In this document: positions 8,450-29,199 of the stretch, in pieces
How positions within the stretch are numbered: position 1 is the stretch's first letter
Layout: every line of letters starts with the position of its first letter
Origin: an uncultured Syntrophomonadaceae bacterium
GTDB lineage: Bacteria; Bacillota; Dethiobacteria; DTU022
Length of the DNA stretch: 64,000 bases
Assembly: GCA_964506505.1 (NCBI GenBank)
Contig: CAZDKY010000019.1
Location: 606 to 64,605 of the forward strand
Reading direction: 5' to 3'
Program-made: the position numbers and the translations under genes
The notes under the pieces: model-generated
What the model saw: the letters and a program-made list of their open reading frames with translations, nothing else
The model's database searches: none
Told to the model about the DNA's origin: nothing

Positions 8450-9574
8450 TTAGCTGCCTCTTACTTCCGAGCAGCTCCGGGCTATGACTATCCGCTGAAT
8501 CTGATTGGTTCCTTCGTAAATCTGAGTTGCTTTGTCATCACAAAATAACCGCACCGGCAGGCTTCCCTGGATTATCCCTTCAAAGCTGCATGTCTCGATG
8601 CACCATGATGCCGCTTCCATGGCCAGATCAGTGGCCGCCGTTTTGGCCATCGATGCCTCCATGGCCTTACCTTTTCCTGTGTCCCTGTTTGCCGCCGCCC
8701 GGTAAGTTAAAAGGCGGGCCGCTTCCAGTCGGGTTGCCAGGTTGGCCAACTCAAATCTTTTACCCTGCCCGTTGCCTTCCTTCCAATCTGCCCTTTTTTT
8801 TAAACACAACATTCCGTAGTCGAGGGCCGCCGCGGCAATCCCCAGTCCCTGGGCGGCAATACCGATCCTGCCACCGTCAAGAAGAGACATAGCTACAGAA
8901 AAGCCCTTTCCTTCTTTTTCTAGTCTGTTCGACACTGGAACATAAAGATCCTCCATCAGCAGTTCCGCTGTGTGAGTTCTGTGCAGACCCATTTTACTTT
9001 CAATTCTACCAACCGTTAAACCGGGACTGCCCTTTTCCACAAGGAAGGCAGTAATTCCCTTTCGCCCCAGAGAAGGATCAATTGTCGCAAAAATAGTGTA
9101 AAGATCGGCTTCTCCGCCGCTGGTGATGAATATTTTCCTCCCAGTTAAACGATAACCACCGTGAACAGGCCTGGCTCCTGTCGAAATGGCGGCTGCGTCG
9201 GAACCTGCATCCGGCTCGGTTAAAGCAAAAGCGCCAATATATTCCCCCCGGGCCAGTTTGACCAGGTAACGTCTTTTCTGTTCTTCGCTGCCAAAATAAA
9301 GCAGCGGCAAGCTTCCTACTGAAGTATGGACGGCCATGATTACACCCGTCGAGGCGCAGATCCTGGAAACCTCTTCAATAAACAGAGTGTAGGTCAGGAA
9401 GTCCTCTCCCAGGCCGCCGTATTGCCGGGGAATGGGCAGACCCATATATCCTCTTTCCGCCGCCCGCTTCAGGTTTGCCCGCGGGTAATCATCGCCGCAG
9501 TCAATGTTTTTCTCGGCAAAATAACGGAATTCCGCTGCCTTTTCGCGGTGCTCTTTAGAAAGGATCAATGACAT
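8450..9574 (-). CDS. Acyl-CoA dehydrogenase (second paralog)
   Basis: 374 aa; ACAD fold (YEGTNQIQRIVIAR C-terminus). Confidence 0.85.
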   Translation of the reverse strand: MSLILSKEHREKAAEFRYFAEKNIDCGDDYPRANLKRAAERGYMGLPIPRQYGGLGEDFLTYTLFIEEVSRICASTGVIMAVHTSVGSLPLLYFGSEEQKRRYLVKLARGEYIGAFALTEPDAGSDAAAISTGARPVHGGYRLTGRKIFITSGGEADLYTIFATIDPSLGRKGITAFLVEKGSPGLTVGRIESKMGLHRTHTAELLMEDLYVPVSNRLEKEGKGFSVAMSLLDGGRIGIAAQGLGIAAAALDYGMLCLKKRADWKEGNGQGKRFELANLATRLEAARLLTYRAAANRDTGKGKAMEASMAKTAATDLAMEAASWCIETCSFEGIIQGSLPVRLFCDDKATQIYEGTNQIQRIVIARSCSEVRGS

Positions 9575-9657
9575 ATCCTTAATTCACCCGTCGCGGTTGG
9601 ATTTTAACTGCCGGATCTGATCCATGCAGGAGATCGGGTAACAGAATCCAAATAAAT

Positions 9658-10839
9658 TCAATCCACCCTGATTATCGTTGCTTCACCCTGAGCTGCCCCG
9701 CTGCAGATTGTAGCCATTCCGTACCCGCCGCCCCGGCGGCGCAGCTCGGCAATTAAGGTCATCAAAATGCGGGCTCCGCTGGCCCCGATGGGATGCCCCA
9801 GGGCTACTGCTCCCCCATTGATGTTTACTTTTTCCTCTTTCCATCCGCCCAGTTTTATACAGGTCAGGGCCACTGCAGCGAAGGCTTCGTTTACTTCAAT
9901 CAGAGTCATCTGTTCGGCTGTCATTCCCGCTGCCGCCAGAGCCTTTCCCGCCGCTACCAGGGGAACCGTGGCTATATAACGCGGCGGCAGTGAGGCCATC
10001 CCCTGGGCAATAATTTCAGCCAGAGGCTTCCACCCATCCTCACGGGCCAGTTTAGAAGAGGCCAGGACCAGTGCTCCTGCGCCGTCGCTGATCGGAGGAG
10101 CGTTTCCCGCGGTAATCAGGCCCTCTTTTTCAAAAGCGGGGGGCAAAGAAGCCAGTTTTCCCAGGCTGGTATCACTGCGCGGCAGCTCGTCTGTTGCAAA
10201 AATAAAATTACCACCCTTTTTCTGCGGAACAACCATTTCGACAATTTCCTCGGCCAGCTTCCCTTCTTCAATGGCCGCCGTTGCCCGCTGGTGGCTGCGC
10301 AGGGCAAAACGATCCATGGCCGCTCTGGTTATGCCGTGCTCGGCAGGCACGGCCGATCCGTGAACCCCCATGTGCACATTGTGAAAAGGACACCACAGGC
10401 CGTCATGGATCATCCCATCAACCAAGGGGGCATCACCCATCCTTGCCCCTTCCCTTGCCCGGGGCAGGAAATAAGGCACGGCGCTCATATTTTCCATTCC
10501 CCCGGCGACGACGAGTGAGGCTTCGCCGCACCTGATCATTAAATCGCCCAGATTAACTGCCCGCAGGCCTGAAGCACAAACCTTGTTAATTGTTTCCGAG
10601 GGCACCTCCGGTGGCAACCCGGCTTTGACAGCCGCCTGACGCGACGGTATCTGACCCGCGCCGGCCTGGATAACCATACCCATGATCACGTTATCCACCC
10701 TGCTGCCGTCAATCCTGCTGCGATCTAGAGCCCCTTTGATTACTGCTGCTCCCAGCTCAACTGCCGGCATCTCCCGCAGGGAACCGAGGAACCTGCCAAA
10801 AGGGGTCCGGGCAAAGCCCAGTATAACAGTTTTTCCCAT
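9658..10839 (-). CDS. Acetyl-CoA C-acetyltransferase (thiolase II)
   Basis: 393 aa; thiolase signatures NKVCASGLRAV, GGGYGMATICSGAAQG. Confidence 0.9.
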   Translation of the reverse strand: MGKTVILGFARTPFGRFLGSLREMPAVELGAAVIKGALDRSRIDGSRVDNVIMGMVIQAGAGQIPSRQAAVKAGLPPEVPSETINKVCASGLRAVNLGDLMIRCGEASLVVAGGMENMSAVPYFLPRAREGARMGDAPLVDGMIHDGLWCPFHNVHMGVHGSAVPAEHGITRAAMDRFALRSHQRATAAIEEGKLAEEIVEMVVPQKKGGNFIFATDELPRSDTSLGKLASLPPAFEKEGLITAGNAPPISDGAGALVLASSKLAREDGWKPLAEIIAQGMASLPPRYIATVPLVAAGKALAAAGMTAEQMTLIEVNEAFAAVALTCIKLGGWKEEKVNINGGAVALGHPIGASGARILMTLIAELRRRGGGYGMATICSGAAQGEATIIRVD

Positions 10840-10927: not shown

Positions 10928-12202
10928 TTACAGGGCCCGATGGGCAATGTCCCGGCGGAAATAACGCCCTTCAAATTCTATTTTATCAACTGCTTCGTAG
11001 ACACGCTTCAATGCTTTATTCAGATCTTCATCCCGGGCGGTAACGCCAAGTACACGCCCACCTGCGGTTAACAAATGCCTGTCCTTAAAAACCGTACCGG
11101 CATGGAAAACGGCCACTTTTCCCTCGCCTTCTTTTACTGCTTCCGCCAAACCGTAAATGGGATAACCTGTTTCGTAGTGGGCGGGATATCCCCTGGAGGC
11201 CAGAACGACGCATACAGCCGGATCGGCAAACCACCGTACCTTCATCTCGCCCAGGGTACCTTCCGCCGCCGCCATTAAGAGCGGCAGCAGATCCGATTCC
11301 ATACGCGGAATAATGGCCTGTGTTTCCGGATCTCCAAATCGCACATTAAATTCCAGGACGTTAATCCTGCCTTTGTCAATCATCAACCCGGCATAAATTA
11401 CACCGCGAAAATCAATTTTATCTTCCGCCAGCCCCTGCAAAAGAGGTTGGAACACTTCCTCTTCAATTCGGGCTGCCACATCATCCGTATAAACCGGGGC
11501 CGGTGAATAGGCCCCCATGCCGCCGGTATTCGGACCCCTGTCACCTTCTCCCACCGCCTTGTGATCTTGAGCCGAGGGCAAAAGGATATATTTTTGGCCG
11601 TCGGTTATCGCCAGCACTGATACCTCTTCACCGCCCAGGCATTGCTCGATAACCACACGGCTGCCGGCCTCACCAAAGGCCTTTTCAACCATTATGTCAT
11701 AGAGGGCCTGTTCAGCTTCTGCCGGCCCCGCTGCTACAGTAACTCCTTTGCCGGCAGCCAGTCCGTCAGCCTTGATCACTACCGGTCCACCGTAAAAACG
11801 GGATAGATGATACCGGGCTTCGTCAAACTCGTCAAAAACGGCAAAATCGGCGGTCGGTATGCCCCACTTTCTCATTTTACGCTTGGCCCAGACCTTACTG
11901 CCTTCCAGCCTGGCTCCGCTGCTGCCCGGGCCGAATACTTTAAGACCGGCATCCCTGAACCGATCGGCCAGTCCATCAACCAGGGGTACTTCCGGCCCGA
12001 CAACCGTCAGATCTATTTTATGGTCTAAAGCCCACTCTTTCAGAGCTTCCCAGTCTTCACTTTTCAGATCCAGGCATTCGGCATGATTGGCAATACCCGG
12101 GTTTCCGGGCATACAGTACATTTTTTTAATCAGGGGACTCTGAGCCAGCTTCCAGGCCAGGGCGTGCTCACGTCCGCCACTACCGACAATAAGAACCCGC
12201 AT
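10928..12202 (-). CDS. purD: Phosphoribosylamine--glycine ligase
   Basis: 424 aa; MRVLIVGSGGREHALAWKL. Confidence 0.95.
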   Translation of the reverse strand: MRVLIVGSGGREHALAWKLAQSPLIKKMYCMPGNPGIANHAECLDLKSEDWEALKEWALDHKIDLTVVGPEVPLVDGLADRFRDAGLKVFGPGSSGARLEGSKVWAKRKMRKWGIPTADFAVFDEFDEARYHLSRFYGGPVVIKADGLAAGKGVTVAAGPAEAEQALYDIMVEKAFGEAGSRVVIEQCLGGEEVSVLAITDGQKYILLPSAQDHKAVGEGDRGPNTGGMGAYSPAPVYTDDVAARIEEEVFQPLLQGLAEDKIDFRGVIYAGLMIDKGRINVLEFNVRFGDPETQAIIPRMESDLLPLLMAAAEGTLGEMKVRWFADPAVCVVLASRGYPAHYETGYPIYGLAEAVKEGEGKVAVFHAGTVFKDRHLLTAGGRVLGVTARDEDLNKALKRVYEAVDKIEFEGRYFRRDIAHRAL

Positions 12203-12223: not shown

Positions 12224-13762
12224 TTAATGTTTAAAATGGCGCCTCCCTGTAAAGACCATGGTCAGACCCAGCCTTTCGCACAAAGCAATCGAATCAGCGT
12301 CTTTAAGCGATCCGCCGGGCTGAACAATTGCCGTCACCCCGGCGGCGGCTGCCGTCTCAACCGTATCGGGAAAAGGGAAAAAGGCATCTGAACCAAGAAC
12401 GGCCCCTTTTGCCTTTTCACCGGCCTGTTCCAGAGCAATTCTGGCCGCTCCGATACGGCTGGTCTGACCCGCCCCGATACCGAAGGTACGCCCCCTGCCG
12501 GCCAGGACAATGGCATTGGATCGAACATGTTTGACCACAGTCTGGGCAAAATTAAGAGCATCCCACTCTTCCTCAGTTGGAGCCCTCTTTGTAACGACCT
12601 TACCCCTTTTAACATCCACCGGTTCCCGATCAACAGTCTGCACCAGCACTCCACCGGCCACTTTTTTGAGGTCCCCTTCTCCTTCTCGATCATTTTTTAG
12701 ATCCATTTCCAGCAGTCGAATATCTTTTTTTGCCGCCAGAATATCCAGGGCCTCTTTGCTGAAAGCCGGGGCGGCAATGACCTCGATAAATATTTTTATC
12801 ATTTCCCGCGCTGTATCAGCATCTACCGGACGGTTCAGAGCCAGGACTCCGCCGAAAATGGAGACTGGATCACCTTCGTACGCCAGTTGATAAGCTTCGG
12901 CCAGGATTTCAGCCGAACCAACTCCGCATGGATTGGCATGCTTAACAGCCACTGCAGTAGGTTCGGTGAATTCCAGGACCAGTTCCCGTGCTGCGTTCAA
13001 ATCATTCAAGTTGTTAAAGGAAAGTTCTTTACCCTGAAGCTTGTGCATGGCCGCCAGTCCGGTTGCTTCACCACGACTTCGGTAGAATGCCGCTTTCTGC
13101 TGCGGATTTTCACCGTAGCGTAGATCCTGAACTTTACTCAGTGAAAGTAACATGTTATCTGGATAATCCCATATTTCCCCTTTTTGCAGACCTTCAAAAT
13201 AGGCAGCAATCGCGGCATCATATTCAGCGGTGTGAGCAAAAGCTTCTCCGGCCAGGCGAGCTCTTGTTTCTTTACTGATTCGGCCGTTTTTCTTAATCTC
13301 CGCTACCGTTTCGTCGTAGCGTTCTGGATTAACCAGGACTGCGACCCTTTCATGGTTCTTTGCAGCCGCCCTGATCATGGAAGGACCGCCTATATCTATA
13401 TTTTCAATCGCTTCCTCCGGGGTCACTCCTTCCCTGGCCACTGTCTGAATAAAGGGGTATAAATTGACCACAACCAGGTCGATGGGAACAATACCATGTT
13501 CTTTCAATTCTTTCGCTTGATTTGAACGGGCCAGGATACCACCGTGAATATAGGGGTGCAATGTTTTAACTCTCCCGCCGAGTATTTCCGGAAAGCCGGT
13601 TACTTCTGAAGCTTCAGTTACTTTTACCCCTCCTTCACGGATCGTTTTCGCTGTTCCGCCGGTTGAAACTATTTCATAACCCAGTTCTGAAAGCTCCCGG
13701 GCCAGCTCATATATTCCTCTTTTATCCGATACACTGAGCAGAGCTCTTTTTCGTTCAGTCAA
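12224..13762 (-). CDS. purH: Bifunctional AICAR transformylase / IMP cyclohydrolase
   Basis: 512 aa; MGS-like domain plus AICARFT domain. Confidence 0.95.
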
Positions 13763-14360
13763 TAATGAGGCACCTTCTTCCTTCTACTTTCAACATGTCG
13801 CGGCAGAAAAGATCTATTGCCGTCGCGTATATTCTGTGTTCGGCAGCATGGATGCGCTGATGCAGGGTTCCCACTGTATCGCGCTGAATAACCGGCACTG
13901 TTTCCTGCAGAATAATCGGTCCGCTGTCAAGTCCTTCTTCAACGAAATGAACAGTACATCCAGTCACTTTAACACCATACCGGCAGGCCTGCCCAATCCC
14001 ATCCAGGCCCTTGAAAGAGGGTAACAGAGAGGGATGAATATTCATGATCCTCAGAGGAAAAGCATCGATAAACAGCGGCGAAAGCAGGCGCATAAATCCA
14101 GCCAGGACTACAAGATCGACCGCTTCATTTTTCAGCAGCTTTACCAGAGTCCGGTCGTATTCCTTTCGGCTTTCATAGAACCGGGGATCAACAAACTGCG
14201 CCTTAACACCGTGATTTTTCGCCCTTTCCAGGGCATGCGCTTTTGCCTGATCACTGATCACCATTACCACTTTTCCGGTAATTTCTTTTTCTTCCACGGC
14301 TTCCAGGATTGCTTCGAGGTTTGTCCCTTCACCGGAAGCCAGGACAGCAATATTTTTCAT
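13755..14360 (-). CDS. purN: Phosphoribosylglycinamide formyltransferase
   Basis: 201 aa; [15 protein letters not shown]...[10 protein letters not shown]. Confidence 0.9.
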
Positions 14361-14450: not shown

Positions 14451-15494
14451 TTATCCTGCCAGTGCAAACTTACCAGTTCCTTTTTCGACTTTTCCGATGA
14501 CAAATGCTGCGATTCCCTGACTTTTAAAATATTCTTCCAGGGGATGCGCTTCACTTTCCGATACTACCAGGACAAAACCGATACCCATGTTAAAAACGCG
14601 GAACATCTCTTCCCGCTTTACAGGCCCCAGTGCTTTAATCAGGTTAAAAATTGCCGGGACTGGCCAGGTTTCCTCTTTTATTACTGCTTTCAATCCGGGA
14701 GGCAGTATGCGAGACAGGTTTCCGGGCAAACCTCCTCCTGTGATGTGAGCCATACCGCGTATTGAGAAGCGCTTGAGTGCTTCCAGGACAGGCCGGACAT
14801 AGATCGTTGTCGGCTGCAGCAGCTCTTCAGCCAATGTCTTATTGAGATCCTGATTCTGCTCCTCAAGGTTCAGTTTATTTTGCTCCAGCAGCACTTTTCG
14901 GACAAGTGAATAGCCGTTGCTGTGCAATCCGCTGGAAGCAAGCCCAACCAGGATGTCACCATCAGAAATATTTTTACCGTCAATTATTTTTTCCCTGTCG
15001 ACCATACCGACGGCAAAACCGGCCAGATCATATTCGCCGGGTGGGTAGAATCCGGGCATCTCGGCCATTTCACCCCCCAGCAGGGCACATCCAGCCTGGC
15101 GGCAGCCTTCTGCCACCCCGCTGACTATCACCTCAATCTGTGATGGTTTCAGCTGTCCTACAGCAAGATAGTCGAGCAGGAACAGGGGTTCTGCTCCCTG
15201 CACCAGGATATCATTGACGCACATTGCTACACAGTCTATTCCCACCGTATCGTGCCGTCCAGCAGCAAAAGCTACTTTCAACTTGGTGCCCACACCGTCA
15301 CAGCCTGAAACAAGAACCGGTTCTTTCAATACCCCGATGTCGGGAGCAAAGAGCCCGCCGAAACCACCGATGTCCTGCAGAACTTCCGGCCGAAAAGTGG
15401 AGCGGGCCATTGCTTTAATCTTTTCCACTGCTTCTTCGCCGGCGTCGATATTAACTCCGGCCTGCCGGTAATTCATTTCTTCAACCAATGCCAA
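14451..15494 (-). CDS. purM: Phosphoribosylformylglycinamidine cyclo-ligase (AIR synthase)
   Basis: 347 aa; AIRS N/C domains. Confidence 0.95.
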   Translation of the reverse strand: MALVEEMNYRQAGVNIDAGEEAVEKIKAMARSTFRPEVLQDIGGFGGLFAPDIGVLKEPVLVSGCDGVGTKLKVAFAAGRHDTVGIDCVAMCVNDILVQGAEPLFLLDYLAVGQLKPSQIEVIVSGVAEGCRQAGCALLGGEMAEMPGFYPPGEYDLAGFAVGMVDREKIIDGKNISDGDILVGLASSGLHSNGYSLVRKVLLEQNKLNLEEQNQDLNKTLAEELLQPTTIYVRPVLEALKRFSIRGMAHITGGGLPGNLSRILPPGLKAVIKEETWPVPAIFNLIKALGPVKREEMFRVFNMGIGFVLVVSESEAHPLEEYFKSQGIAAFVIGKVEKGTGKFALAG

Positions 15495-15547: not shown

Positions 15548-17527
15548 CTAGAAAAACAGCGGTGCAAAAACAAGAGCCACTATACTCATCAGCTTGATCA
15601 AAATATTAAGGGACGGCCCCGCCGTATCCTTGAAGGGATCACCTACCGTATCGCCTACCACCGCTGCCTTGTGCGCATCGCTTCCCTTTCCTCCCAGGTT
15701 CCCAGCCTCAATAAATTTCTTGGCATTGTCCCAGGCTCCTCCGGCATTAGCCATGTTAATAGCCTGCAGCACACCTGTCACCAGGGCACCGGCCAACAAT
15801 CCACCAAGAGCTTCCCGGCCAAGGAATGGGATTAAACCAACAGCCAGTGGTACGACCACGGCCATCAGACCCGGAATAACCATTTCCCTGAGGGCCGCGC
15901 TGGTGCTGATGTCTACGCATCTGGCATATTCCGGACGAGTTTCGCCTTCCATCAGCCCTGGAATTTCCTTGAACTGGCGGCGGATTTCTTCGATCAGGGA
16001 AAAAGCGGCATTGCCCACCGCTTCCATGGTCCGTGAAGTAAAGAAATATGTAAGCATACCGCCGATCATTAACCCGGCTATCACCTTGGCACTGATGATA
16101 TTGATTACGCTCATCTCGGCAACCTGGGCATAAGCGGTAAATAGGGCCAGGGCTGTCAGCGCCGCCGAACCGATGGCAAAACCCTTGCCAATGGCCGCTG
16201 TGGTGTTGCCAAGAGAGTCGAGTTGGTCGGTAATTTTGCGCACATCTTTTTCCAGCTCCGCCATCTCCGCAATGCCTCCGGCATTATCGGCCACCGGGCC
16301 GTAAGCATCAACAGCGACAGTCATACCAACCGTGGAAAGCATCCCTACCGCCGATATGGCAATGCCGTAAATACCGGCAAAATGATACGATACCAGGATA
16401 GCTGCAACAATGGTAAGCACAGGGTAAACCGTGCTCTTCATCCCCACGGCCAGACCGCTGATAATATTAGTTGCCGGGCCGGTGGTTGAAGCCCGGGCGA
16501 TATCTTGCACCGGTTTGAAATGATCTGAAGTATAGTATTCGGTAATCCTGCCGATGATTACCCCGGCCAGCAAACCGGCAACCACAGCATAGAATGATCC
16601 GAAATCAGGGAAAACTCCTTCACCGACAAAGTAACTGACCAGAAAGTAAGATACTATTACTACTACCAGGGCACTGATCCATATACCCCGATCTAGAACT
16701 GCTCCCAGTCGGGCCCCTTCTTTAGCCCTCACGAAAAAGGAAGCAAAAATTGAAGCAAGCACTCCTACCGAAGCCACCAGCAATGGCAGCAGTGTACCAC
16801 CGAAACCGTAGATGACTACACCAAGAGTCATAGTGGCGATCATAGAACCAACATACGATTCAAAAAGGTCAGCTCCCATTCCAGCAACATCGCCGACATT
16901 GTCGCCCACATTATCGGCTATTACACCGGCGTTTCGCGGATCGTCTTCCGGTATGCCCGCTTCCACCTTGCCTACCAGGTCAGCGCCCACATCGGCAGCC
17001 TTGGTATAGATACCGCCTCCCACCCTGGCAAATAGGGCAATTGAGCTCGCTCCAAGGGCATAACCGTTAATAATGGCCGGCTCGCGGATTAACAGGTAAA
17101 GCACACCCAGTCCAAACAGGCCCAGCCCGGCTACCATCATTCCCATGATCGTCCCGCTTGAAAAAGCAATAGTCAGGGCAGGATTGATTCCCGAACGGGC
17201 GGCATGGGCGGTGCGCACATTGGCACTTGTGGCCACGGTCATGCCAATATAACCTGCGGTAGCCGAGAAAACTGCTCCCACTACAAAACTGACTGCGGTG
17301 AGTATGTCGATGGCCAGGGCCAGGACAATTGTCAAAACAACTACAAAGATCGCCAGGTAAGTGTATTCACGCTTAAGAAAAGCCATTGCTCCTTCGTGAA
17401 TAGCGCCGGCGATCTCCTTCATTTTATCGCTGCCCGGATCGGCCTGGCGCAGTTTGGACCAGAGAATTATTGCAAAAACAAGGGCCGCCAGGGCACAAAT
17501 CGGTACAGCATAAAGCATTGATTCCAT
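15548..17527 (-). CDS. hppA: Membrane-bound K+/Na+- or H+-translocating pyrophosphatase
   Basis: 659 aa polytopic protein; [19 protein letters not shown] and DNVGDNVGD motifs. Embedded inside the pur operon between purF and purM. Confidence 0.9.
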
Positions 17528-17863: not shown

Positions 17864-19267
17864 CTAAGCCTTCTGTGGATAGTCACCTGTAAAACAGGCC
17901 CGGCAAAAATTACTGGCCGGTAGTCCGATGGCGGCAACCACTTCCTCAAGACTCAGGTAGCCGATTGAATCGGCTCCGATCAGTTTCGGTATTTCCATCA
18001 CCTCGCGCTGGTAGGCAATAAGCTCATGCGGATCGGGTGTATCAATACCGTAGTAACAGGAACCGATCAGGGGCGGTGAGCTAATCCGCAGGTGCACTTC
18101 TTTTGCTCCAGCACGACGCATTATTTTGATCAGCTTAAGACTGGTTGTCCCGCGGACAATGGAATCATCTACCAGGACCACCCTTTTCCCTTCGACGATT
18201 TTCTTCACTGCATTCAGCTTCAGGTCCACCCCTTCTTCACGCATTTTCTGGGTAGGCTTGATAAAGGTGCGACCGATATAACGGTTTTTGACCAGGGCCA
18301 TTTCGTAGGGTAAACCTGCTTCTTCGGCAAAACCTGAAGCAGCGGCGATGCTTGAATCGGGCACTCCAGAAACAATATCAGCCTCAACTGGATGTTCGCG
18401 GGCCAGTCTCCTGCCCAGTTCCTTGCGCACCAGGTGCACATTTTTGCCCAATAGATTGCTGTCAGGCCGGGCAAAGTAGATATATTCAAAAATACAGAGG
18501 TTGGGATGGCTATTTTCAATGATCTGCCTGCTATGCAAGCCATTTTCATCAAGGATCACCATTTCGCCAGGTTCGACATCGCGGATGAAAGAAGCGCCAA
18601 TAGTATCAAAAGCACATGTTTCAGAAGCAAGGAAATAGCCGTTTCCTTCAAGGGAAGCGACTGAGAGAGGACGGAATCCGAAACCATCTCGCAGGCCGAT
18701 GACCCGGTGCCCGTCGCTGATTACAAAGGCAAAGGCTCCCTTGAGACGTGGGATCACTGCAGCCAGAGATTCCTCCAGAGAGCTGCTTCCCTGCCGGGCT
18801 ATCATGTGAGCAAGAAGTTCGCTGTCCGTATCAGTTTGGAATATAGCTCCCTGACGTTCAAGTTCTTCACGCAGGTCGGCTGAATTAAGGAGATGGCCAT
18901 TGTGGGCAATGACCAGCTCACCGTGTCGATAGCGCAGTTTAAGAGGTTGTGTGTTCTCGAAACTGCTGCCACCTTCGCTTCCGTAGGGATAACGGACATG
19001 ACCTACCGCCAGTTTGCATACTATACCTTTCAGGTCGGCGCTTACTGGAAATACTTCTGAAACCAGTCCCAGTCCTCTTTTTAGCAACATCTTGCGACCG
19101 TCACCCGGCCCGGCAGCGATGCCGGCGCTCTCCTGCCCCCGGTGTTGCAAAGCATAGAGGGCAAAACAGGTCAAAAAAGCCAGTGGTTGATCTTCAGCAT
19201 AGCCGCCGCATACTCCACAGGCTTCGTGCAGATTCCGGCAACCGTTTGAAATTACTTCATCAGGCAT
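17864..19267 (-). CDS. purF: Amidophosphoribosyltransferase
   Basis: 467 aa; N-terminal Cys nucleophile (ACGVCG), PRTase domain, Fe-S cysteines. Confidence 0.95.
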
Positions 19268-21447
19268 GAAAAAACCTCCTCGTACGCGGACCGCAAACTG
19301 CTAATCTCCAATTTTAATATTATATCATCGCCCGAGCGGATCAGCAAAACCTTGCCCCCTGTTTTTCCCAGGATGGTAAGCGGAACTCCCGCTTTTTCAG
19401 CCTCGACTTTCACATTCTCCAGGTTTTCTCCGCCCGTAGATATTAAAACCCTGGACGGTCCTTCCCCGAATAAGGAGCTTATTTTATCCGGCTGTCCGGT
19501 AACTTCCACAGCAGCGCCAATATTGTTTGGCAGGCAGCTTTCCGCCAGGGCCACTGCCAGACCGCCTTCCGCCAAATCATGGGCCGAAGCAACCAGCCTG
19601 CTGCGTACCAAACAACGAACCAGAGACTGCAATCTTTTTTCCAGTTCCAGGTTAACAGGGGACAACAGACCACCCAATTCTCCGCCGCAGCTCTTCTGCA
19701 GCTGGCTGCCTCCAAGAGATACTGCCGGCGATCCCAGCAGACAAATCCAGTCTCCTGGCTTTTTGAAATCCGCTGTTCCCTGCTGTTCATATCTGTCCAG
19801 TAATCCCACTGCTCCGACTACCGGTGTAGGATAAATAGCCTGCCCGGCAACCTCGTTATAAAAACTGACATTGCCACCTACCACCGGGGTTTCCAGAACC
19901 CGGCAGGCTTCAGCCATTCCTTCAACCGTTGCTTTGAACTGGCTGTAAATTTCTTCTTTCTCGGGATTGCCAAAATTAAGGCAATCCGTAATGCCAACAG
20001 GTTCCGCTCCTACACAGCTAAGGTTACGGGTCGCTTCCATTACCGCCATCTTGCCGCCGGCTGATGGATCAAGGTGGCAATAACGACCGTTTCCGTCAAC
20101 GGTCATAGCCAGCGCCTGTCCTGTTTGACGAATCTTGATTACTGCCGCATCGCCGCCCGGTCCCTGCACAGTTGACGTGCGCACCTGATAATCATAGCGC
20201 TGCCAGACCCATTCCTTGGAAGCAATATCCGGGTCGGCTAGCAAATTGAGCAAAACCTCTCCGCAATTTTCGATCCCGGTAACTGGCTTATTTACTTCCC
20301 GGCAAACAGAAGTACCGCCATTTGCCGCACAATCCTCAGCATATTCTGGACTTCCTCCGGCCACACTCCAGGCGGGAACGGAAACTACCTTTTTACCTTT
20401 ATGGTAAACTGTTACAAGACCGTCATCGGTAACCCGTCCCAGCACTGCCATTTCCAGTTCCCAGCGACTGAATATATTTTTTACTTCTTCCTTCCGTTTC
20501 GGTTCAACAATTAGCAGCATCCTTTCCTGCGATTCGGAAGTAAGAATTTCAAAATCTTCCATTTCCGCTTCTCGCAGGGGCACCCGGTCCAGATCAATCT
20601 CCATACCAGTCCCGGCGCGGGAAGCTGTTTCCGTTAATGCACAGGTTAATCCGGCCCCGCCCAAATCCTGCACTCCAACTACTGCTTTCTCTTCAATTGC
20701 TTCCAGGGTTGCTTCAAGAAGCAGCTTGCCCAGGAATGGATCACCTACCTGAACAGCCGGCCTTCTTTCTTCAGAAGCATTCGAAAGCTCTTCCGAAGCG
20801 AATGTTACGCCGTGTATGCCGTCTCTTCCAGTCAGAGCACCGACCAGGATAACCAGGTTGCCAGGAGCGTCTGCCCTTCCAAGGGTCAACTTTTCCAGGG
20901 GCATAACACCTACACACATTACATTAACCAGCGGATTGCCGCGATAGCACTGCTCAAAATAAACCTCTCCGCCAACTGTAGGAATGCCGACACAGTTTCC
21001 GTAACCTCCGATACCGGCAACCACGTTGTCAAAAATATAGCAGGTCCTATCGTTATCTGGCGGTCCAAAGCGAAGCGAATTCAAAAAAGCAACCGGTTGG
21101 GCTCCCATAGTAAAGATATCCCTCAGTATTCCGCCCACCCCGGTTGCTGCTCCCTGGTAAGGCTCAATCGCCGAAGGATGATTATGGCTCTCGATCTTGA
21201 ATACCGCGGCCCATCCTTTCCCAATGTCAACCACTCCGGCATTTTCGCCTGGGCCCTGGATAATCCGCGAACCGGAAGTGGGAAATATTTTCAGCATAGA
21301 TCGTGAATGTTTGTAGCTGCAGTGCTCGGACCACATTACACTGTACATGTTAAGTTCAACTTCATTGGGCTCTCGCCCCATCTGTTTTTTAATCAGCGCA
21401 TACTCACCATCAGTAAGACCAAGGCTGCGCCATATTTTGTCGTTCAA
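19252..21447 (-). CDS. purL: Phosphoribosylformylglycinamidine synthase subunit II
   Basis: 731 aa; AIRS-like repeats. Confidence 0.95.
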
Positions 21448-21468: not shown

Positions 21469-22164
21469 TCAAGACCTATCCAGATAGCGGCAGATCGATT
21501 CAAATATAACCAGGCCGTCTTCCGAACCAAGGGTCGCCTCACCAGCTCGTTCCGGGTGAGGCATCATTCCTGCTACATTCCCCCGCTTGTTGCAAACACC
21601 GGCTATATTGCCCAGTGAACCATTTGGATTGGCTTCCTCCGTAATTTCGCCTTTTGCATTGCTGTAGCGAAAAATGATCTGCCTGTTTTCATCCAGCTGA
21701 TCCAGCACATCCGGTGGAGCATAGTAACATCCATCGCCGTGGGCCACGGGGATTTTCAGAACATCTCCTCTTGCCGCACTGCCAGTGTAAGGTGTATCGC
21801 CGTTTTCAACTCGCAGGAAAACCTGGCGGCAACGGAACTGGAGATTCTGATTACGGTAAAGTGCGCCGGGGAGCAAACCGGCTTCGGTCAGTACCTGGAA
21901 ACCGTTGCATATTCCGAAAACCAGGCCTCCCTGTTCAGCAAATTCCTGTACTACTTCCATAACCGGGCTGAAACGGGCAATAGCGCCCGCCCGCAGGTAA
22001 TCTCCGTAAGAAAAACCGCCGGGCAGGATTACTGCATCACAGCGGCCCAGGGTCGGCTGATCATAACGAACATAATATGCTTCATGGTTCATAACGTCCT
22101 GCACCAGGTGATAGGCATCGAGATCGCAGTTTGAACCAGGAAAAACCAGGACCGCAAATTTCAT
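21469..22164 (-). CDS. purQ: Phosphoribosylformylglycinamidine synthase glutaminase subunit
   Basis: 231 aa; [14 protein letters not shown], class I glutamine amidotransferase. Confidence 0.95.
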
Positions 22165-22472
22165 TTTCCGCCCTCCGGTTCCTGCAGGGAATAGCCAAAA
22201 TCTTCGATAACCGGGTTGCTCAACAGACGCTCTGACATCTCTTTCACCAGTGATGACGCCTCTTCCCTGCTGTCGGCCTCGATAAAAACTTCCATGTATT
22301 TGCCAACCCTCACCCGCTGTACCGTCTCATAACCGAGCGTTTTAAGAGATTTTTCCACCGCCAGGCCCTGTGGATCGCGCACCTCTTTTTTAAGAGTTAC
22401 CTCAACTTTTGCCTTCCAGATCAGATCATGTACCCCCTTCCAGGCGTTGAAGGACTTCGCGGTATGCTTCAA
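22161..22472 (-). CDS. purS: Phosphoribosylformylglycinamidine synthase subunit PurS (start uncertain)
   Basis: [17 protein letters not shown]...[10 protein letters not shown] aligns with PurS. The ORF-track start is a TTG that overlaps purC; the true start is probably nearer 22415, giving about 84 aa. Confidence 0.8.
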
Positions 22473-23136
22473 TCACTCCGCCCATGTCACGACGGAAGCG
22501 ATCTTTATCCAGTTTTTCACCGCTGTCGCTGTCCCATAAGCGGCATGTATCGGGAGATATTTCGTCTCCCAGGATGACCTCGCCTTTATGCCTTCCGAAT
22601 TCGAGTTTAAAATCCACCAGCACTATCCCTTTTTCTTTCAGATAAGACTGCAACAGTTCATTAATTTTAAGAGCCTCTTTTTCTATGACGGCCATCTCTT
22701 CAGGTGTAGCCAGATCGAGGGCGTATATATGATAATTGTTGATCATCGGATCATGCAGCTTGTCGTTTTTCAGGGAAAACTCAAGAACAGTCTTTTTTAG
22801 GGTCATCCCTTCCGGTATACCGAGCCTCTTTGAGATACTGCCGGCAGCGATGTTTCGAACAATCACTTCTACCGGAATTATTTCCAGGGCCTTTACCAGC
22901 ATTTCCCGATCGCTCAGCCTCTCCATGTAATGAGTTTTTACACCCTTCTTTTCAAGGAAACTGAAAAATATTTCCGAAAGGCGGTTGTTCAGGATTCCCT
23001 TGTCTGCCAGCTGATCTTTCTTTTCGCCGTCAAAAGCGGTAGCATCGTCCTTAAATTCAACCAGCAGCAACGCAGGATCGTCTGTGCGAAACATCTTCTT
23101 TGCTTTGCCTTCATAAAGGAATTCTCCTCTTTTCAC
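22426..23136 (-). CDS. purC: SAICAR synthetase
   Basis: 236 aa; [16 protein letters not shown] synthetase family. Confidence 0.95.
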
Positions 23137-23222: not shown

Positions 23223-24515
23223 TCAAATGCCCAGCCGTCGGTAAATATGGTCAACACGCCTTAGATAGTAGGCCGGGTCAAAACATGCAGCCAGCTTTTC
23301 CTCGCCAAGCCGTTCCCTGATCACTTCGTCATCAGCAAGCAAATCCCGGAAACTGCGGCCGCAGTTCCAGGCTTCCATCGCCCTGGACTGGACTAAATCA
23401 TAGGCTTCTTCGCGGGAGAGGCCTGTTTCCACCAGTTCGAGAAGAACTCTCTGGGAATAAATCAAACCGCCTGTTAATTCAAGGTTACGGACTATGTTTT
23501 CCGGGCGAACCTTCAGCTCCCGCATCACCCTGATCATCTGCCTGAGTAAATGATCAGTCACAATAGTAGCATCGGGCAAGATAACCCTCTCCACCGAGGA
23601 ATGTGAAATATCCCGTTCATGCCAGAGGGCTACATTTTCCAGCGCCGCCGTGGCATAGCCGCGCAGGAGGCGGGACAGGCCGCAGATTTTTTCACATGTC
23701 ACCGGGTTCCGCTTGTGAGGCATAGCCGATGAGCCCTTCTGCCCGCTGTAAAAAGGTTCTTCCATTTCAGCCGTCTCGGTACGCTGTAGATTGCGCAACT
23801 CCAGGGCCATTTTTTCCAGTGTTGCTCCAATCAGAGCCAGCACCGAGACAAATTCGGCGTGCCGGTCGCGCTGCAGGACCTGAGTCGATACAGGAGCCGG
23901 TTCAAGCCCCATTTTACGGCATACATATTCCTCGATAAAGGGATCAATGTGGGCAAAATTGCCTACCGCCCCGGACATTTTACCCACGCGGACTCCTTCT
24001 GCCGCCCGTTCCAACCGCCCGCGGTTTCTCCGCGTTTCAGCCAGCCAGAGGGCAAATTTTAAGCCCATACTGGTCGGCTCGGCATGCACCCCGTGAGTGC
24101 GTCCCACAGCTGGTATATCACGATAGCGTTTTGCCTGTTTGGTCAGGACCTCTTCCAGTGCGGCTAGCTCCTTTTGCAACAGTGAGGCAGCCTCCGAGAG
24201 GAGGACGGAAAGGGCAGTGTCGACAACATCGTAAGAAGTAAGTCCGTAATGGAAGAAACGGCTTTCTTCACCGAGCGACTCCGCCACGCACCGGGTGAAA
24301 GCAACCACATCGTGCCGTGTTTCCTTTTCCAGCTCTTCGATTCTTTCCACCGAAAAAGAAGCCTTTTCTGCAATCAGGTTTACTGTATCACTGGGAATAA
24401 CCCCCAGCTCAGACCAGGCTTCCAGGGCGCATAATTCTACCGTCAAAAATTTTTGATAGCGGTTTTCAAGGCTCCAGATACGGCCCATTTCCGGATGCGT
24501 ATACCGTTCTATCAT
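23223..24515 (-). CDS. purB: Adenylosuccinate lyase
   Basis: 430 aa; MIERYTHPEM..., fumarate lyase signature GSSAMPHKRNP. Confidence 0.95.
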   Translation of the reverse strand: MIERYTHPEMGRIWSLENRYQKFLTVELCALEAWSELGVIPSDTVNLIAEKASFSVERIEELEKETRHDVVAFTRCVAESLGEESRFFHYGLTSYDVVDTALSVLLSEAASLLQKELAALEEVLTKQAKRYRDIPAVGRTHGVHAEPTSMGLKFALWLAETRRNRGRLERAAEGVRVGKMSGAVGNFAHIDPFIEEYVCRKMGLEPAPVSTQVLQRDRHAEFVSVLALIGATLEKMALELRNLQRTETAEMEEPFYSGQKGSSAMPHKRNPVTCEKICGLSRLLRGYATAALENVALWHERDISHSSVERVILPDATIVTDHLLRQMIRVMRELKVRPENIVRNLELTGGLIYSQRVLLELVETGLSREEAYDLVQSRAMEAWNCGRSFRDLLADDEVIRERLGEEKLAACFDPAYYLRRVDHIYRRLGI

Positions 24516-25042
24516 TCCTTTTCACCTTGTTCAAGCTGTTGGCAGCTTTTCAATTTTTCCCTCAGACGGCTGTCCTTTTCTTCCACCTGGGCGGCCAGCT
24601 TCTGCCGATAACTGTTTAACTTTTCCCTCAGTTCCTCCTCTTCCATGGCCAGCATCTCCACAGCGAGCAATCCGGCGTTGTAAGCTCCGTTGATGGTCAC
24701 CGTGGCCACCGGGATACCCCGCGGCATCTGGACAATGGAATAAAGCGAGTCAATCCCCTGCAGTGGTTCGATAGCAATCGGTACACCGATCACCGGCAGG
24801 GTTGTCATTGAAGCGATCACTCCCGGCAGGTGAGCCGCTCCACCTGCTGCAGCGATAATCACCTTCAGCCCGGCATCGGCAGCGCCACGGGCATAACGGG
24901 CTGTTTTTTCCGGGTGGCGGTGGGCGCTTGAAACTAACATCTCGTAGCCGACTCCGAACTCTGACAGCGCATCGCCGCATTTTTCCATGATCGGCAAATC
25001 TGAATCGCTGCCCATTACTATGCCTACCTGGATTGAGGACAT
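24512..25042 (-). CDS. purE: N5-carboxyaminoimidazole ribonucleotide mutase
   Basis: Start placed at the ATG at 25040-25042 (MSSIQVGIVMGSDSDL), which has a GGAGG RBS 6 nt upstream. The ORF-track start at 25069 would include the RBS. Confidence 0.9.
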   Translation of the reverse strand: MSSIQVGIVMGSDSDLPIMEKCGDALSEFGVGYEMLVSSAHRHPEKTARYARGAADAGLKVIIAAAGGAAHLPGVIASMTTLPVIGVPIAIEPLQGIDSLYSIVQMPRGIPVATVTINGAYNAGLLAVEMLAMEEEELREKLNSYRQKLAAQVEEKDSRLREKLKSCQQLEQGEKE

Positions 25043-25071
25043 TAGGTACCTCCGCGTGTTAAGATTCAAAC

Positions 25072-25267: not shown

Positions 25268-26560
25268 TTAAGAAGGCCAGAAGAAGTGAATCAAAGCAAC
25301 AACCGCCAGCACATAAATCAACCAGTGGATTTCTTTGCCCTTACCAGCAACCAGCTTGACAATCGGGTAAGCTATGAACCCAAAAGCAATACCGTCGGCA
25401 ATGCTGTAAGCCAGGGGCATAAAGATTATTGTCAGAAAAGCGGGCAGTGCTTCAGTAAAATCTTCGAAATTGATTTTAGATACCGCACCAACCATCATCA
25501 CCCCGACTATAATCAAAGCCGGAGCCGTCGCCTCAGCCGGAACCAATCCGGCCAGTGGGGCCAGGAAAAGAGTCAGCAGGAACAAAATTCCTACTACTAT
25601 CGAAGTTAAGCCCGTCCTGCCGCCTTCGGAAATCCCGGCGGTCGATTCCACGTAGGTGGTCACCGTACTTGTCCCAAGAATGGCTCCACCCATGGTACCA
25701 ATTGAGTCAGCCAGCATGGCCTTGTTTACCTTGGGCAGGCGGCCGTCCTTATCGAGGAAGCCGGCCCTGGCTCCCGTTCCCAGCAGTGTACCCATGGTAT
25801 CAAAGACATCAACAAAGATAAAAGAAAAAATAACGAAGAATGGAATGGCCAGTGCGGCTCTCAGATCCAGCTTAAAGAAAACTGGTGCCAGGCTTGCCGG
25901 GGGTCCAAAGATATCACCCAGGCCACCGGGCAGAGGTTGAATGCCCATAATAAAGCTGACAATAGTCGTCAGCAGGATACCGATCAGAATCGCTCCCCGT
26001 ACTTTGCGGGCCATGAGAACAGCAATAATGAGAATCCCGATCAGTGAAAGCATCGGGCCGGGAGCAGTCAAATCGCCCAGGGCCACCTGGGTCGCTTCAC
26101 TGCTGACAATTATACCGGCGTTCTGCAGACCGATATAGGCGATGAACAGTCCGATCCCGGCTGCTACCGCGCTCTTCAGACTGGATGGCACCGCCGCATC
26201 AATATGCGAAATTGCTCCGGAAATAGCAAGAATAAAGAATACGATACCTGAGATTAAAACGGCACCGAGAGCAGCCTGCCAGCCAAATTGAGCGGCAACA
26301 ACAAAAGCAAAAAAGGCGTTCAAACCCATTCCGCTGGCCAGGGCAAAGGGATAGTTGGTCATCAATCCCATTAAAATAGTAGTCAGGGCCGCAGCGATAA
26401 TCGTAGCTGTCATCACCGCACCGAAATCCATTCCGGCGCCTTCTAATATGGAAGGGTTAACAAAGATAATATAGGCCATAGTCATAAAAGTGGTAATGCC
26501 TGCGGTGATTTCAGTCTTCACATCAGTCTTATGTTCTTTAAATTTAAAAAGATTTTCCAT
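25268..26560 (-). CDS. Purine (guanine/hypoxanthine/adenine) permease, NCS2/AzgA-PbuG family
   Basis: 430 aa; 12+ TM segments; MENLFKFKEHKTDVKTEITAGITTFMTMAYIIFVNPSIL is typical of AzgA/PbuG; located just upstream of the pur operon. Confidence 0.8.
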   Translation of the reverse strand: MENLFKFKEHKTDVKTEITAGITTFMTMAYIIFVNPSILEGAGMDFGAVMTATIIAAALTTILMGLMTNYPFALASGMGLNAFFAFVVAAQFGWQAALGAVLISGIVFFILAISGAISHIDAAVPSSLKSAVAAGIGLFIAYIGLQNAGIIVSSEATQVALGDLTAPGPMLSLIGILIIAVLMARKVRGAILIGILLTTIVSFIMGIQPLPGGLGDIFGPPASLAPVFFKLDLRAALAIPFFVIFSFIFVDVFDTMGTLLGTGARAGFLDKDGRLPKVNKAMLADSIGTMGGAILGTSTVTTYVESTAGISEGGRTGLTSIVVGILFLLTLFLAPLAGLVPAEATAPALIIVGVMMVGAVSKINFEDFTEALPAFLTIIFMPLAYSIADGIAFGFIAYPIVKLVAGKGKEIHWLIYVLAVVALIHFFWPS

Positions 26561-26660
26561 CTTTTACCTCCTAACTGTTTTTGAATACTGAGTTTATTCA
26601 AGTGAAATTAAATATTTCGTTTGCCTTGCAGGTTAAGGCTCACCTCCCGGACTATAAATT

Positions 26661-26815
26661 AAAAAACCCTGTCAGATAGGTATCGAGTGAAACCTACCCG
26701 CCTGGGCTTTTATCCCTCCGGTGTGACACCCATGAAGATAAGTTCTGCAGCAGTGGATGTCTGCGCCACTTGGACCAGCCCGGCTATGATCCTGCTCCGG
26801 CGGAACCCTAGGCAC
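26661..26815 (-). promoter_or_regulatory. ykkC-family riboswitch (probably the PRPP-sensing subtype 2b) with a terminator/antiterminator expression platform, in the leader of the permease-pur operon
   Basis: The minus-sense transcript reads CCUAGGGUUCCGCCGGAGCAGG...GGCUGGUCCAAGUG...CACACCGGAGGGAUAAAAGCCCAGGCGGGUAGGUUUCACUCGAUACCUAUCUGACAGGGUUUUUU. This matches the ykkC core blocks CUAGGGUUCCG / GGUCCGAGAG / ACGGAGGGAUAAAAGCCCGGGA. A terminator stem overlaps the 3' aptamer arm and is followed by U6. Confidence 0.7.
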
Positions 26816-26827
26816 ACTTTCCCTCGT

Positions 26828-26857
26828 AATTATTGATTACCCAACAGCCGTCCTTAA
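26828..26857 (-). promoter_or_regulatory. Candidate sigma-A promoter (TTAAGG-18-ATAATT) for the riboswitch/permease transcript
   Basis: -35/-10-like hexamers about 12 nt upstream of the aptamer 5' end; motif-level evidence only. Confidence 0.35.
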
Positions 26858-27074
26858 CAAAACAAGCGGCCAGCTGGATCGTTTATCTGCTCTGACAAAC
26901 GATTATCAACTCCCTGCTTTGCTGTAGAACTGTTACGGTAACGATTTATTCTTTCGCCGTATTGACTAATAATCCTTCAAAAAAAGATAAATATCTTCTC
27001 CCATATTTCAACGCTCAAAATAATTTAATAGTTATGTGGACAGTCTTGATATCTTAAACTTGTTTCGGATCAGG

Positions 27075-27121
27075 ACCTGTTAAAAGCAAAGCAGCCCTGT
27101 CATCATGGACAGGGCTGCTTT
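27075..27121 (-). terminator. Intrinsic terminator downstream of groEL (perfect 14-bp stem, bidirectional palindrome)
   Basis: AAAGCAGCCCTGTC-atcatg-GACAGGGCTGCTTT followed by a U-rich tract in the minus sense. Confidence 0.7.
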
Positions 27122-27139
27122 ATTAAATTATTATTTGCC

Positions 27140-28783
<1,644 letters not shown>

Positions 28784-29126: not shown

Positions 29127-29158
29127 TTAGCAGCACTCTCCCTTAACGAGTGCTAATA
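29127..29158 (-). promoter_or_regulatory. CIRCE-like HrcA operator in the groES leader
   Basis: The minus sense reads TTAGCACTC-GTTAAGGGA-GAGTGCTGCTAA. The left arm is a perfect CIRCE match, with a 9-nt spacer. The right arm carries a 3-nt insertion. Confidence 0.75.
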
Positions 29159-29183
29159 TTACTGTAAATAATATTACTGTAAA
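29156..29183 (-). promoter_or_regulatory. Candidate sigma-A promoter of groESL (TTTACA-16-TAATAT) abutting CIRCE
   Basis: The minus sense reads TTTACAgtaatattatttacagTAATAT immediately 5' of CIRCE. A direct repeat TATTACTGTAAA x2 is also present. Confidence 0.5.
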
Positions 29184-29199
29184 GCATTGCCTTAAGCAA

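Follow-up and report, generated by a model that had tools for sequence, protein, structure and literature searches.

A predicted stand-alone ykkC subtype 2b riboswitch upstream of a nucleobase permease gene and a purine biosynthesis cluster in an uncultured Syntrophomonadaceae bacterium

Riboswitches of the ykkC class share a common scaffold and fall into subtypes that respond to different ligands. Here, we describe one such element in a 64,000-nucleotide stretch of DNA (the window) from an uncultured Syntrophomonadaceae bacterium (assembly GCA_964506505.1, contig CAZDKY010000019.1, positions 606 to 64,605). Coordinates are those of the window, and the features discussed are read on its minus strand. 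The element at 26826..26661 is, judged from its sequence, very probably a stand-alone ykkC subtype 2b riboswitch, the subtype that senses phosphoribosyl pyrophosphate (PRPP), and it is predicted to act as an antitermination ON switch in front of a nucleobase permease gene and a cluster of purine biosynthesis (pur) genes. It is a previously unlisted but ordinary member of an established class: PRPP riboswitches have been known since 2018, with a solved structure and experimental validation. The exact riboswitch sequence was sought in the published alignment and was not found there; close relatives are present in it. The original prediction, which was made from the letters of the sequence, had placed the switch at 26661-26815. 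The element does lie there, but this interval cuts off at its 5' end the conserved GAAAG tail (26821-26817) and the extended strand of helix P0 (26826-26818).

Family match and diagnostic positions

The three conserved ykkC blocks that had been proposed can be read directly from the minus strand, CUAGGGUUCCG at 26811-26801, GGUCCAAGUG at 26776-26767 and ACCGGAGGGAUAAAAGCCCAGGCGGG at 26722-26697. In a permissive Rfam scan of the region 26450-27200 the family RF00442 (ykkC/guanidine-I) matches 26822..26697 over the full length of the model (1-107) with 59.5 bits, where the gathering threshold is 63. The E value of this match is 5.6e-10 in the 751-nt search and 1.2e-08 when 16.8 kb are searched, and RF00442 is the sole Rfam family with a credible match in the region. 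We have also used a covariance model, termed R1, that was built from 39 published 2b aptamers with base pairs derived from the crystal structure. Soda-lake metagenome sequences closely related to the window element were kept out of its training set. R1 is the nearest equivalent of the subtype 2 model with which the original prediction had suggested to check the element, and it matches 26822..26682 over its full length with 92.5 bits (E 3e-28). The runner-up in the 64-kb window reaches only 15.7 bits and lies inside purL. The match of the element is far above chance.

The original prediction had taken an Rfam score under threshold as a sign that it was wrong. A full-length ykkC match is there, but the threshold turns out to be the wrong yardstick. 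We retrieved 120 genome loci by the 3' block GGGAYAAAAGCCCRGGCGGGTAGGTTTC and scanned 18 of these, all pur-linked, at the gathering threshold. RF00442 reached this threshold in seven of them (63-71 bits) and not in the other 11, and no separate PRPP family in Rfam 15 picked up the elements of the 18 loci. The gathering threshold is therefore not valid as a refutation test for subtype 2b. The long P2 insert, the subtype-specific substitutions and the longer P1b loop probably depress the RF00442 score.

In the alignment of the 39 published 2b aptamers, the element matches 38 of 38 invariant and 8 of 8 near-invariant positions. The numbering of individual nucleotides was calibrated by counting along the Thermoanaerobacter mathranii aptamer in the published Stockholm file and by the contacts reported for its structure (PMC6031431); this counting reproduces the published A5, G6, G48, C49, C77, C78, G96, A101, A103, G104 and G105. 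When aligned to the published 2b set, the window element carries A5 at 26818, G6 at 26817, G48 at 26769, a pyrimidine (U) in position 49 at 26768, C77 at 26721, C78 at 26720, G101 (still a purine) at 26697, A103 at 26695, G104 at 26694 and G105 at 26693. G96, which belongs to the S-turn and is invariant in the 39 published members aligned, is found at 26702.

Several of these positions bear on the ligand. Sorting of ykkC RNAs by one single position splits the guanidine contexts from the rest: where guanidine-I has A46, subtypes 2a and 2b have a pyrimidine, C49 (PMC6031431). The pyrimidine at position 49 (U26768) thus excludes guanidine-I; of 107 relatives, 58 have U and 48 have C at this position. 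A further mark of subtypes 2a and 2b is an additional helix, P0, formed by their conserved 5' and 3' tails (PMC6031431; PMC5912903), and in the crystal structure of the T. mathranii aptamer the pyrophosphate of PRPP is contacted by A5 and G6 (PMC6031431). G96 is more than 97% conserved (>97%) in PRPP aptamers, while in aptamers for guanosine tetraphosphate (ppGpp; subtype 2a) it is absent or replaced by A, C or U and is never G; the exchange G96A flips the specificity about 40,000-fold (PMC6031431). The presence of G96 at 26702 therefore sets PRPP apart from ppGpp. Inspection of the diagnostic nucleotides had been suggested from the start, and U49, G96 and the tails agree with subtype 2b and not with guanidine-I. 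Together with the R1 score, the 46 of 46 conserved positions and the pur context, this sequence evidence speaks for the PRPP subtype that the original prediction had favored.

Aptamer fold, terminator and predicted switching

The scaffold blocks CUAGGGUUCC, GGUCCRAG and ACACC..GGGANAAAAGCCC and the helices P1, P1a, P1b, P2 and P3 are present in the full-length alignments to RF00442 and R1. These alignments define a P1 region (26816-26762) that encloses the CUAGGGUUCC block, P1a, P1b and GGUCCAAGUG. P1 itself pairs 26816-26811 with 26767-26762, P1a is formed by C26803/C26802 with G26775/G26776, and the P1b hairpin occupies about 26801-26779. The P2 hairpin (26761-26725), seen in the unconstrained minimum free energy (MFE) fold, exceeds the consensus length of the family. 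The junction ACA, P3 and the ligand pocket follow at 26724-26693, as located by the conserved positions of the 39 published aptamers. Here, the alignment pairs 26721-26719 with 26700-26698 in lower P3 and GGG (26716-26714) with CCC (26706-26704) in upper P3, which closes the loop AUAAAAG; the S-turn A-G96-G and the 3' tail (26697-26693) with G101, A103, G104 and G105 come next. On the other side of the aptamer, A5 and G6, which contact the ligand, belong to the conserved 5' tail GAAAG. The 5' strand of P0 with its extension, CGAGGGAAA (26826-26818, including A5), pairs with UUUCACUCG (26692-26684), the 3' strand of P0 with its extension. Eight of the nine positions are paired and one is a G-A mismatch. 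In the OFF state, UUUCACUCG would instead form the top of the terminator hairpin. The tail UAGGUUUCACUCGAU, as found at the 3' strand of P0, is present in 18 published 2b sequences. Among 82 distinct relatives the core of P0 (A5-U106 to G2-C109) is paired in 81-82, and 70-89% of them could also pair the GAG/CUC extension.

Covariation in the relatives supports the ykkC fold. A search with model R1 recovered 108 elements from 100 sources, and in the covariation set of 108 relatives 97.8% of the pair cells are standard, compared to 22-47% when the partners are slid by 1-3 columns. Double-sided changes are seen in 15 of 25 pairs, among them five of the six P1 pairs, both P1a pairs and all six modelled P2 pairs, and none of 500 shuffles reaches the observed values. 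The covariation is located in P1, P1a, P1b and P2. P3 and P0 are invariant, partly through the pattern that was used to retrieve the loci.

The 3' part of the aptamer overlaps a predicted intrinsic terminator hairpin (26711..26662) that ends in a U6 tract (26666-26661). The 5' arm of this hairpin, AAAAGCCC..CGGGUAGGU, covers the loop and the 3' arm of P3 together with the S-turn and the ligand-contacting 3' tail, and its 3' arm, ACCUAUCUG..GGGUUUU, runs into the U6 tract. A folding energy of -24.5 kcal/mol (z -3.4) was obtained for a 71-nt segment with the hairpin (26725-26655), a stability that none of 200 shuffles matched. A simple terminator scan did not list the hairpin at 26711..26662, and the same scan likewise missed the groEL terminator further upstream; the 10-nt apical loop and the internal loops of the hairpin are possibly the reason for the miss. 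Sharing of the aptamer 3' arm with a terminator followed by U6, in an ON-switch architecture, was part of the original prediction, and the modelled folds, with arms like those of Heliobacterium modesticaldum (see below), are in line with it.

The aptamer and the terminator are mutually exclusive folds. Without constraints, the whole 176-nt element has an MFE of -57.9 kcal/mol and contains P1, P1a/P1b, P2 and the terminator, compared to -50.0 kcal/mol with P0, P1 and P3 enforced. The default state would thus be termination, and a ligand-stabilized P3/P0 must pay for antitermination, which makes the element an ON switch. Since about 100 nt separate the U tract from the Shine-Dalgarno (SD) sequence and the ATG of the permease gene, the control is expected to be transcriptional and not to work by sequestration of the ribosome binding site. 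We envisage that P1, P1a/P1b and P2 form first when the leader is transcribed. At low PRPP, the segment 26711-26689 (P3 loop, P3 3' arm, S-turn and 3' tail) would pair with 26684-26662, and the terminator hairpin with its U6 tract would halt RNA polymerase at about 26661. When PRPP accumulates, as in purine starvation, PRPP and Mg2+ would be bound in a pocket of P3, the S-turn (G96) and the add-on helix P0 (A5, G6, G104, G105). This would lock the P3 and P0 strands in the aptamer and block the terminator, and polymerase would read through into the nucleobase permease gene and presumably into the whole purE...purD cluster.

A switch of this design has been described before. The purB switch of H. 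modesticaldum is a singlet with the same aptamer blocks and the same ON-switch design upstream of pur genes, and its PRPP-dependent read-through was demonstrated both in vitro (T50 40-90 uM) and, in vivo, with a reporter in B. subtilis lacking purF (Sherlock et al. 2018, PMC5912903). The terminator arms of both elements align position for position (5' GCCCAGGCGGRUAGGUU, 3' AYCUAUCUGNCNGGG). However, the two elements have P1b and P2 of different length and sequence, the terminator loop has 10 nt here and about 20 nt there, and the first gene is the permease gene in the window and purB in H. modesticaldum; the H. modesticaldum switch has been validated by experiment, whereas the window element is described in silico. 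The PRPP aptamer of T. mathranii, for which a crystal structure is available (Knappenberger et al. 2018, PMC6031431), has A5, G6, G48, C77, C78, G96, G104, G105 and P0 in common with the window element. Position 49 is C in T. mathranii and U in the window, and position 101 is A and G, respectively; both alternatives are common in the class.

Unlike the window element, the T. mathranii aptamer is part of a guanine-PRPP tandem. Tandems of this kind, such as the IMPLY gate of Bacillus megaterium codA, combine the same PRPP aptamer and shared terminator with a guanine aptamer. The original prediction had seen no such second aptamer, and we can confirm this: the guanine aptamer model RF00167 has no match at gathering in the window and none at E<=10 in 26450-27200, while it detects the guanine aptamers of tandem relatives at 64-88 bits. 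A short AT-rich inverted repeat, GTAATCAATAATTAC, takes the place in the window at which the 3' strand of P1 of a tandem guanine aptamer would adjoin P0. Singlets make up about half of the published PRPP-switch members (PMC5912903).

Gene cluster and competing readings

By Pfam and NCBIfam the element is followed by a cluster of 13 genes that are all on the minus strand. The first gene (26560..25268) encodes an NCS2-family nucleobase permease (Xan_ur_permease, Pfam PF00860, E 2.8e-47), to which NCBIfam assigns no name; its ATG at 26560 is preceded by the SD sequence AGGAGG (26572-26567). It is followed by purE (25069..24512), purB (24515..23223), purC (23136..22426), purS (22472..22161), purQ (22164..21469), purL (21447..19252), purF (19267..17864), a gene for a membrane pyrophosphatase of 659 aa (17527..15548), purM (15494..14451), purN (14360..13755), purH (13762..12224) and purD (12202..10928). 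The original prediction had named a permease and a 12-gene pur operon. Its permease and its gene order purE-B-C-S-Q-L-F-M-N-H-D are borne out by Pfam, but the pyrophosphatase between purF and purM had been missed, and the cluster has 13 genes and not 12. We presume that all 13 genes are co-transcribed. A terminator scan found no minus-strand terminator-like sites in the intergenic gaps of the operon, and no Rfam element besides the switch was found across 10.5-27.3 kb at E<=0.5.

Of 123 elements with the 3' block, 68 have purE as the first gene downstream and 35 have a permease gene that is then followed by pur genes. The closest relative, a Bacillota metagenome-assembled genome (L024), is 87% identical over the leader and the permease gene, and about 17 further loci, mostly labelled Syntrophomonadaceae, have the order switch-permease-purE. 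An identical permease protein is encoded on 6 contigs; the four listed stem from as many different samples, GCA_002030005.1 (LQBG01000054.1) and three metagenomes of the Joint Genome Institute (JGI).

Permease gene and purE are separated by 198 nt. This gap holds a 10-bp GC-rich hairpin, GGUUCGGGCA...UGCCCGAACC, with a 28-nt loop and without a U tract, and in the window also CGAAC/GTTCG repeats. The hairpin may be an intercistronic processing or stability hairpin. Across the clade the gap measures 40-305 nt and is of unrelated sequence, with some GC-rich hairpin in most members. A conserved control element or PurBox in the gap was considered and rejected, because the CGAAC/GTTCG repeats are missing in the closest relative and the gap sequences are unrelated.

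A few points weigh against a PRPP switch that controls the whole cluster. The Rfam scan of the whole 64-kb window at gathering threshold gives no match. The call between subtypes 2a and 2b rests on G96 and the gene context, the criteria used by the discoverers themselves (PMC6003355), with scores taken against RF00442 and R1 and not against a 2a model. The relatives were retrieved with a pattern that fixes G96 and are hence no independent test of the link between G96 and gene context. Finally, the hairpin-bearing gap between permease gene and purE could hide a partial terminator or an internal promoter.

This last point leads to a reading in which the switch is real but serves the permease gene only, with the pur genes transcribed from an internal promoter or uncoupled by the hairpin in the gap. 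We consider this unlikely. The large gap and its GC-rich hairpin, which has counterparts in most clade members, are in its favor, as is the 336-nt gap between purF and the pyrophosphatase gene. However, the scan shows the permease-purE gap to be free of minus-strand terminator-like and promoter-like sites, this gap is conserved neither in length nor in sequence, and the hairpin in the window has a wide loop and no U tract. Because 68 of the 123 relatives have the switch directly before purE, the pur genes appear to be the ancestral target of the switch, which also argues against a permease-only role.

Much less probable is that the element is a ppGpp riboswitch (subtype 2a) that turns the operon on in the stringent response. 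The consensus sequences of 2a and 2b are nearly identical, down to a possible difference of one nucleotide (PMC9881157; PMC6031431), and ppGpp riboswitches share with the window element the fold, P0, the pyrimidine at position 49 and the ON-switch type. The wild-type PRPP aptamer of T. mathranii even binds ppGpp weakly (Kd 91 uM; PMC6031431). But ppGpp riboswitches are without the G96 that the window element has, all 46 conserved 2b positions are matched here, and the genes downstream are those of purine biosynthesis and not the branched-chain amino acid, glutamate (glutamate synthase) or natA genes to which subtype 2a is linked (PMC6031431; PMC6003355).

That the element is a decaying relic without regulatory function is more improbable still. 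The sub-threshold Rfam score is the sole point in favor of such a relic, and nothing specific speaks for it. All 46 conserved positions, the helices and the terminator are intact, and the closest relative retains about 87% identity over the element, in a leader that is otherwise free to drift. The recovery of the exact permease protein from the different samples mentioned above is likewise at odds with decay. A guanidine-I riboswitch (subtype 1), for which one could cite that RF00442 'Guanidine-I' is the only matching Rfam family and that the P1-P1a-P1b-P2-P3 scaffold and many tertiary-contact nucleotides are shared, has next to no chance: the match stays below gathering, the equivalent of A46 is U at the position that alone segregates guanidine contexts (PMC6031431), the conserved tails and P0 are foreign to guanidine-I, the genes downstream are a permease and pur genes and not the guanidine carboxylase or efflux genes of guanidine detoxification, and subtype 2 RNAs assayed so far do not bind guanidine (PMC5912903). 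A PRPP switch in front of the permease gene and the pur genes is the reading that we prefer.

Upstream region, accompanying genes and implications

The original prediction had described an unusually long leader of about 520 nt. The distance from the groEL terminator, a hairpin at 27118-27091 that folds at -26.8 kcal/mol, to the permease ATG (26560) is indeed about 520 nt, but this is an intergenic distance and not a demonstrated leader. The only decent sigma-70-like site in the scan (27011..26984) is doubtful as a promoter, because its -35 element is lost in L024. In a relaxed scan the window, L024 and seven other clade members all have a -10-like hexamer whose end lies 6-9 nt short of the aptamer. 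The candidate promoter that results in the window reads TTAAGG-17-AATAAT, with a weak -35 element. If it is used, the RNA would start at the extended P0 and the 5' untranslated region would have about 266 nt.

Window and L024 are tightly conserved from about 26995 to the aptamer, with about 95% conservation in 26827-26995. The upstream region contains blocks that are shared in the clade, namely TTGAAGGAWT (26980-26971), ACGGCGAAA followed by a -10-like AT-rich hexamer, and CAGGGAG. There are also repeated ATCGTT half-sites, including the inverted repeat ATCGTTT-N12-AAACGAT. The upstream blocks in 26827-26995 may be promoter or operator DNA or a 5' RNA structure. The AT-rich inverted repeat that adjoins the aptamer in the window has the form CGTTAAAA-N5-TTTTAACG in the relatives. 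Since it overlaps a -10-like hexamer that keeps a conserved distance to the aptamer, this apparent hairpin may act at the DNA level as promoter or operator. PurBox or sigma-H readings of the blocks TTGAAGGAWT and GGCGAAA were dismissed, because spacing and core matches are poor by eye; TTGAAGGAWT shows no enrichment in the window.

Downstream of the switch, about 14 nt past the terminator U tract, lies an orphan extended SD-like box, GGAGGUGA (26647-26640), which is complementary to the 3' end of 16S rRNA and occurs once in the 64-kb window. In 20 clade members the box keeps a fixed offset from GGUUUC, 34-42 nt after it, with a background of about 1.5%, and it is placed 33-122 nt 5' of a real start codon. 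A leader peptide starting after the box was rejected, because neither start codon nor frame is conserved across the clade. We can only speculate that the box may be a ribosome-binding mRNA stabilizer or a standby site.

The neighboring groES-groEL operon has a sigma-A-type promoter (TTTACA-16-TAATAT) followed by an inverted repeat that resembles the controlling inverted repeat of chaperone expression (CIRCE), TTAGCACTC-N9-GAGTGCTGCTAA, at about 29128-29190 on the minus strand. A sigma-A promoter with CIRCE is the usual arrangement of an HrcA operator. On the other side of the cluster, directly 3' of purD, thiolase and acyl-CoA dehydrogenase genes are found on the minus strand (8450-10839), and the same gene is present in JGI sample 3300001335. 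These genes fit a fatty-acid-oxidising, Syntrophomonadaceae-like organism.

The membrane pyrophosphatase within the cluster is assigned with an E value of 1.5e-279 (Pfam H_PPase), and its best NCBIfam match is the sodium-translocating pyrophosphatase equivalog with 1004 bits. The closest homologues, with 75-85% identity, are found in four loci, three of which also have the order purF-pyrophosphatase-purM (L096, L125 from soda-lake sediment, and L128), and in the fourth (L127) purF is followed by the pyrophosphatase gene. Among 80 metagenome pyrophosphatase loci the arrangement is limited to three. The 336-nt gap between purF and the pyrophosphatase gene contains an open reading frame of 53 aa (17788-17627). 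PurF catalyzes the step that consumes PRPP and releases pyrophosphate (PPi). It is tempting, if rather speculative, to think of a wider circuit in a soda-lake Syntrophomonadaceae-like lineage, in which purine-base import, de novo synthesis and an ion-pumping pyrophosphatase placed after purF would be coupled through a single PRPP-gated transcript, with GGAGGUGA as a STAB-SD-like stabilizer of the read-through RNA and the conserved ATCGTT inverted repeats of the putative promoter as sites of control at the protein level. We regard such a circuit as improbable.

For the family, the element is of value mainly for annotation. Rfam 15 scores this subtype near the guanidine-I threshold, so that elements are missed, as in the window, or taken for guanidine sensors. 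Such elements can be reassigned with confidence from position 49, G96 and the tails. Biologically, a singlet PRPP switch before a permease gene and a complete pur operon adds little and is a modest extension of the published gene associations; the permease is unmentioned in the original description of the PRPP switch. The cluster would also be a natural case of a membrane pyrophosphatase inside a PRPP-regulated operon. If the wider circuit were true, PRPP sensing would in this organism also govern the disposal of PPi and the recovery of its energy.

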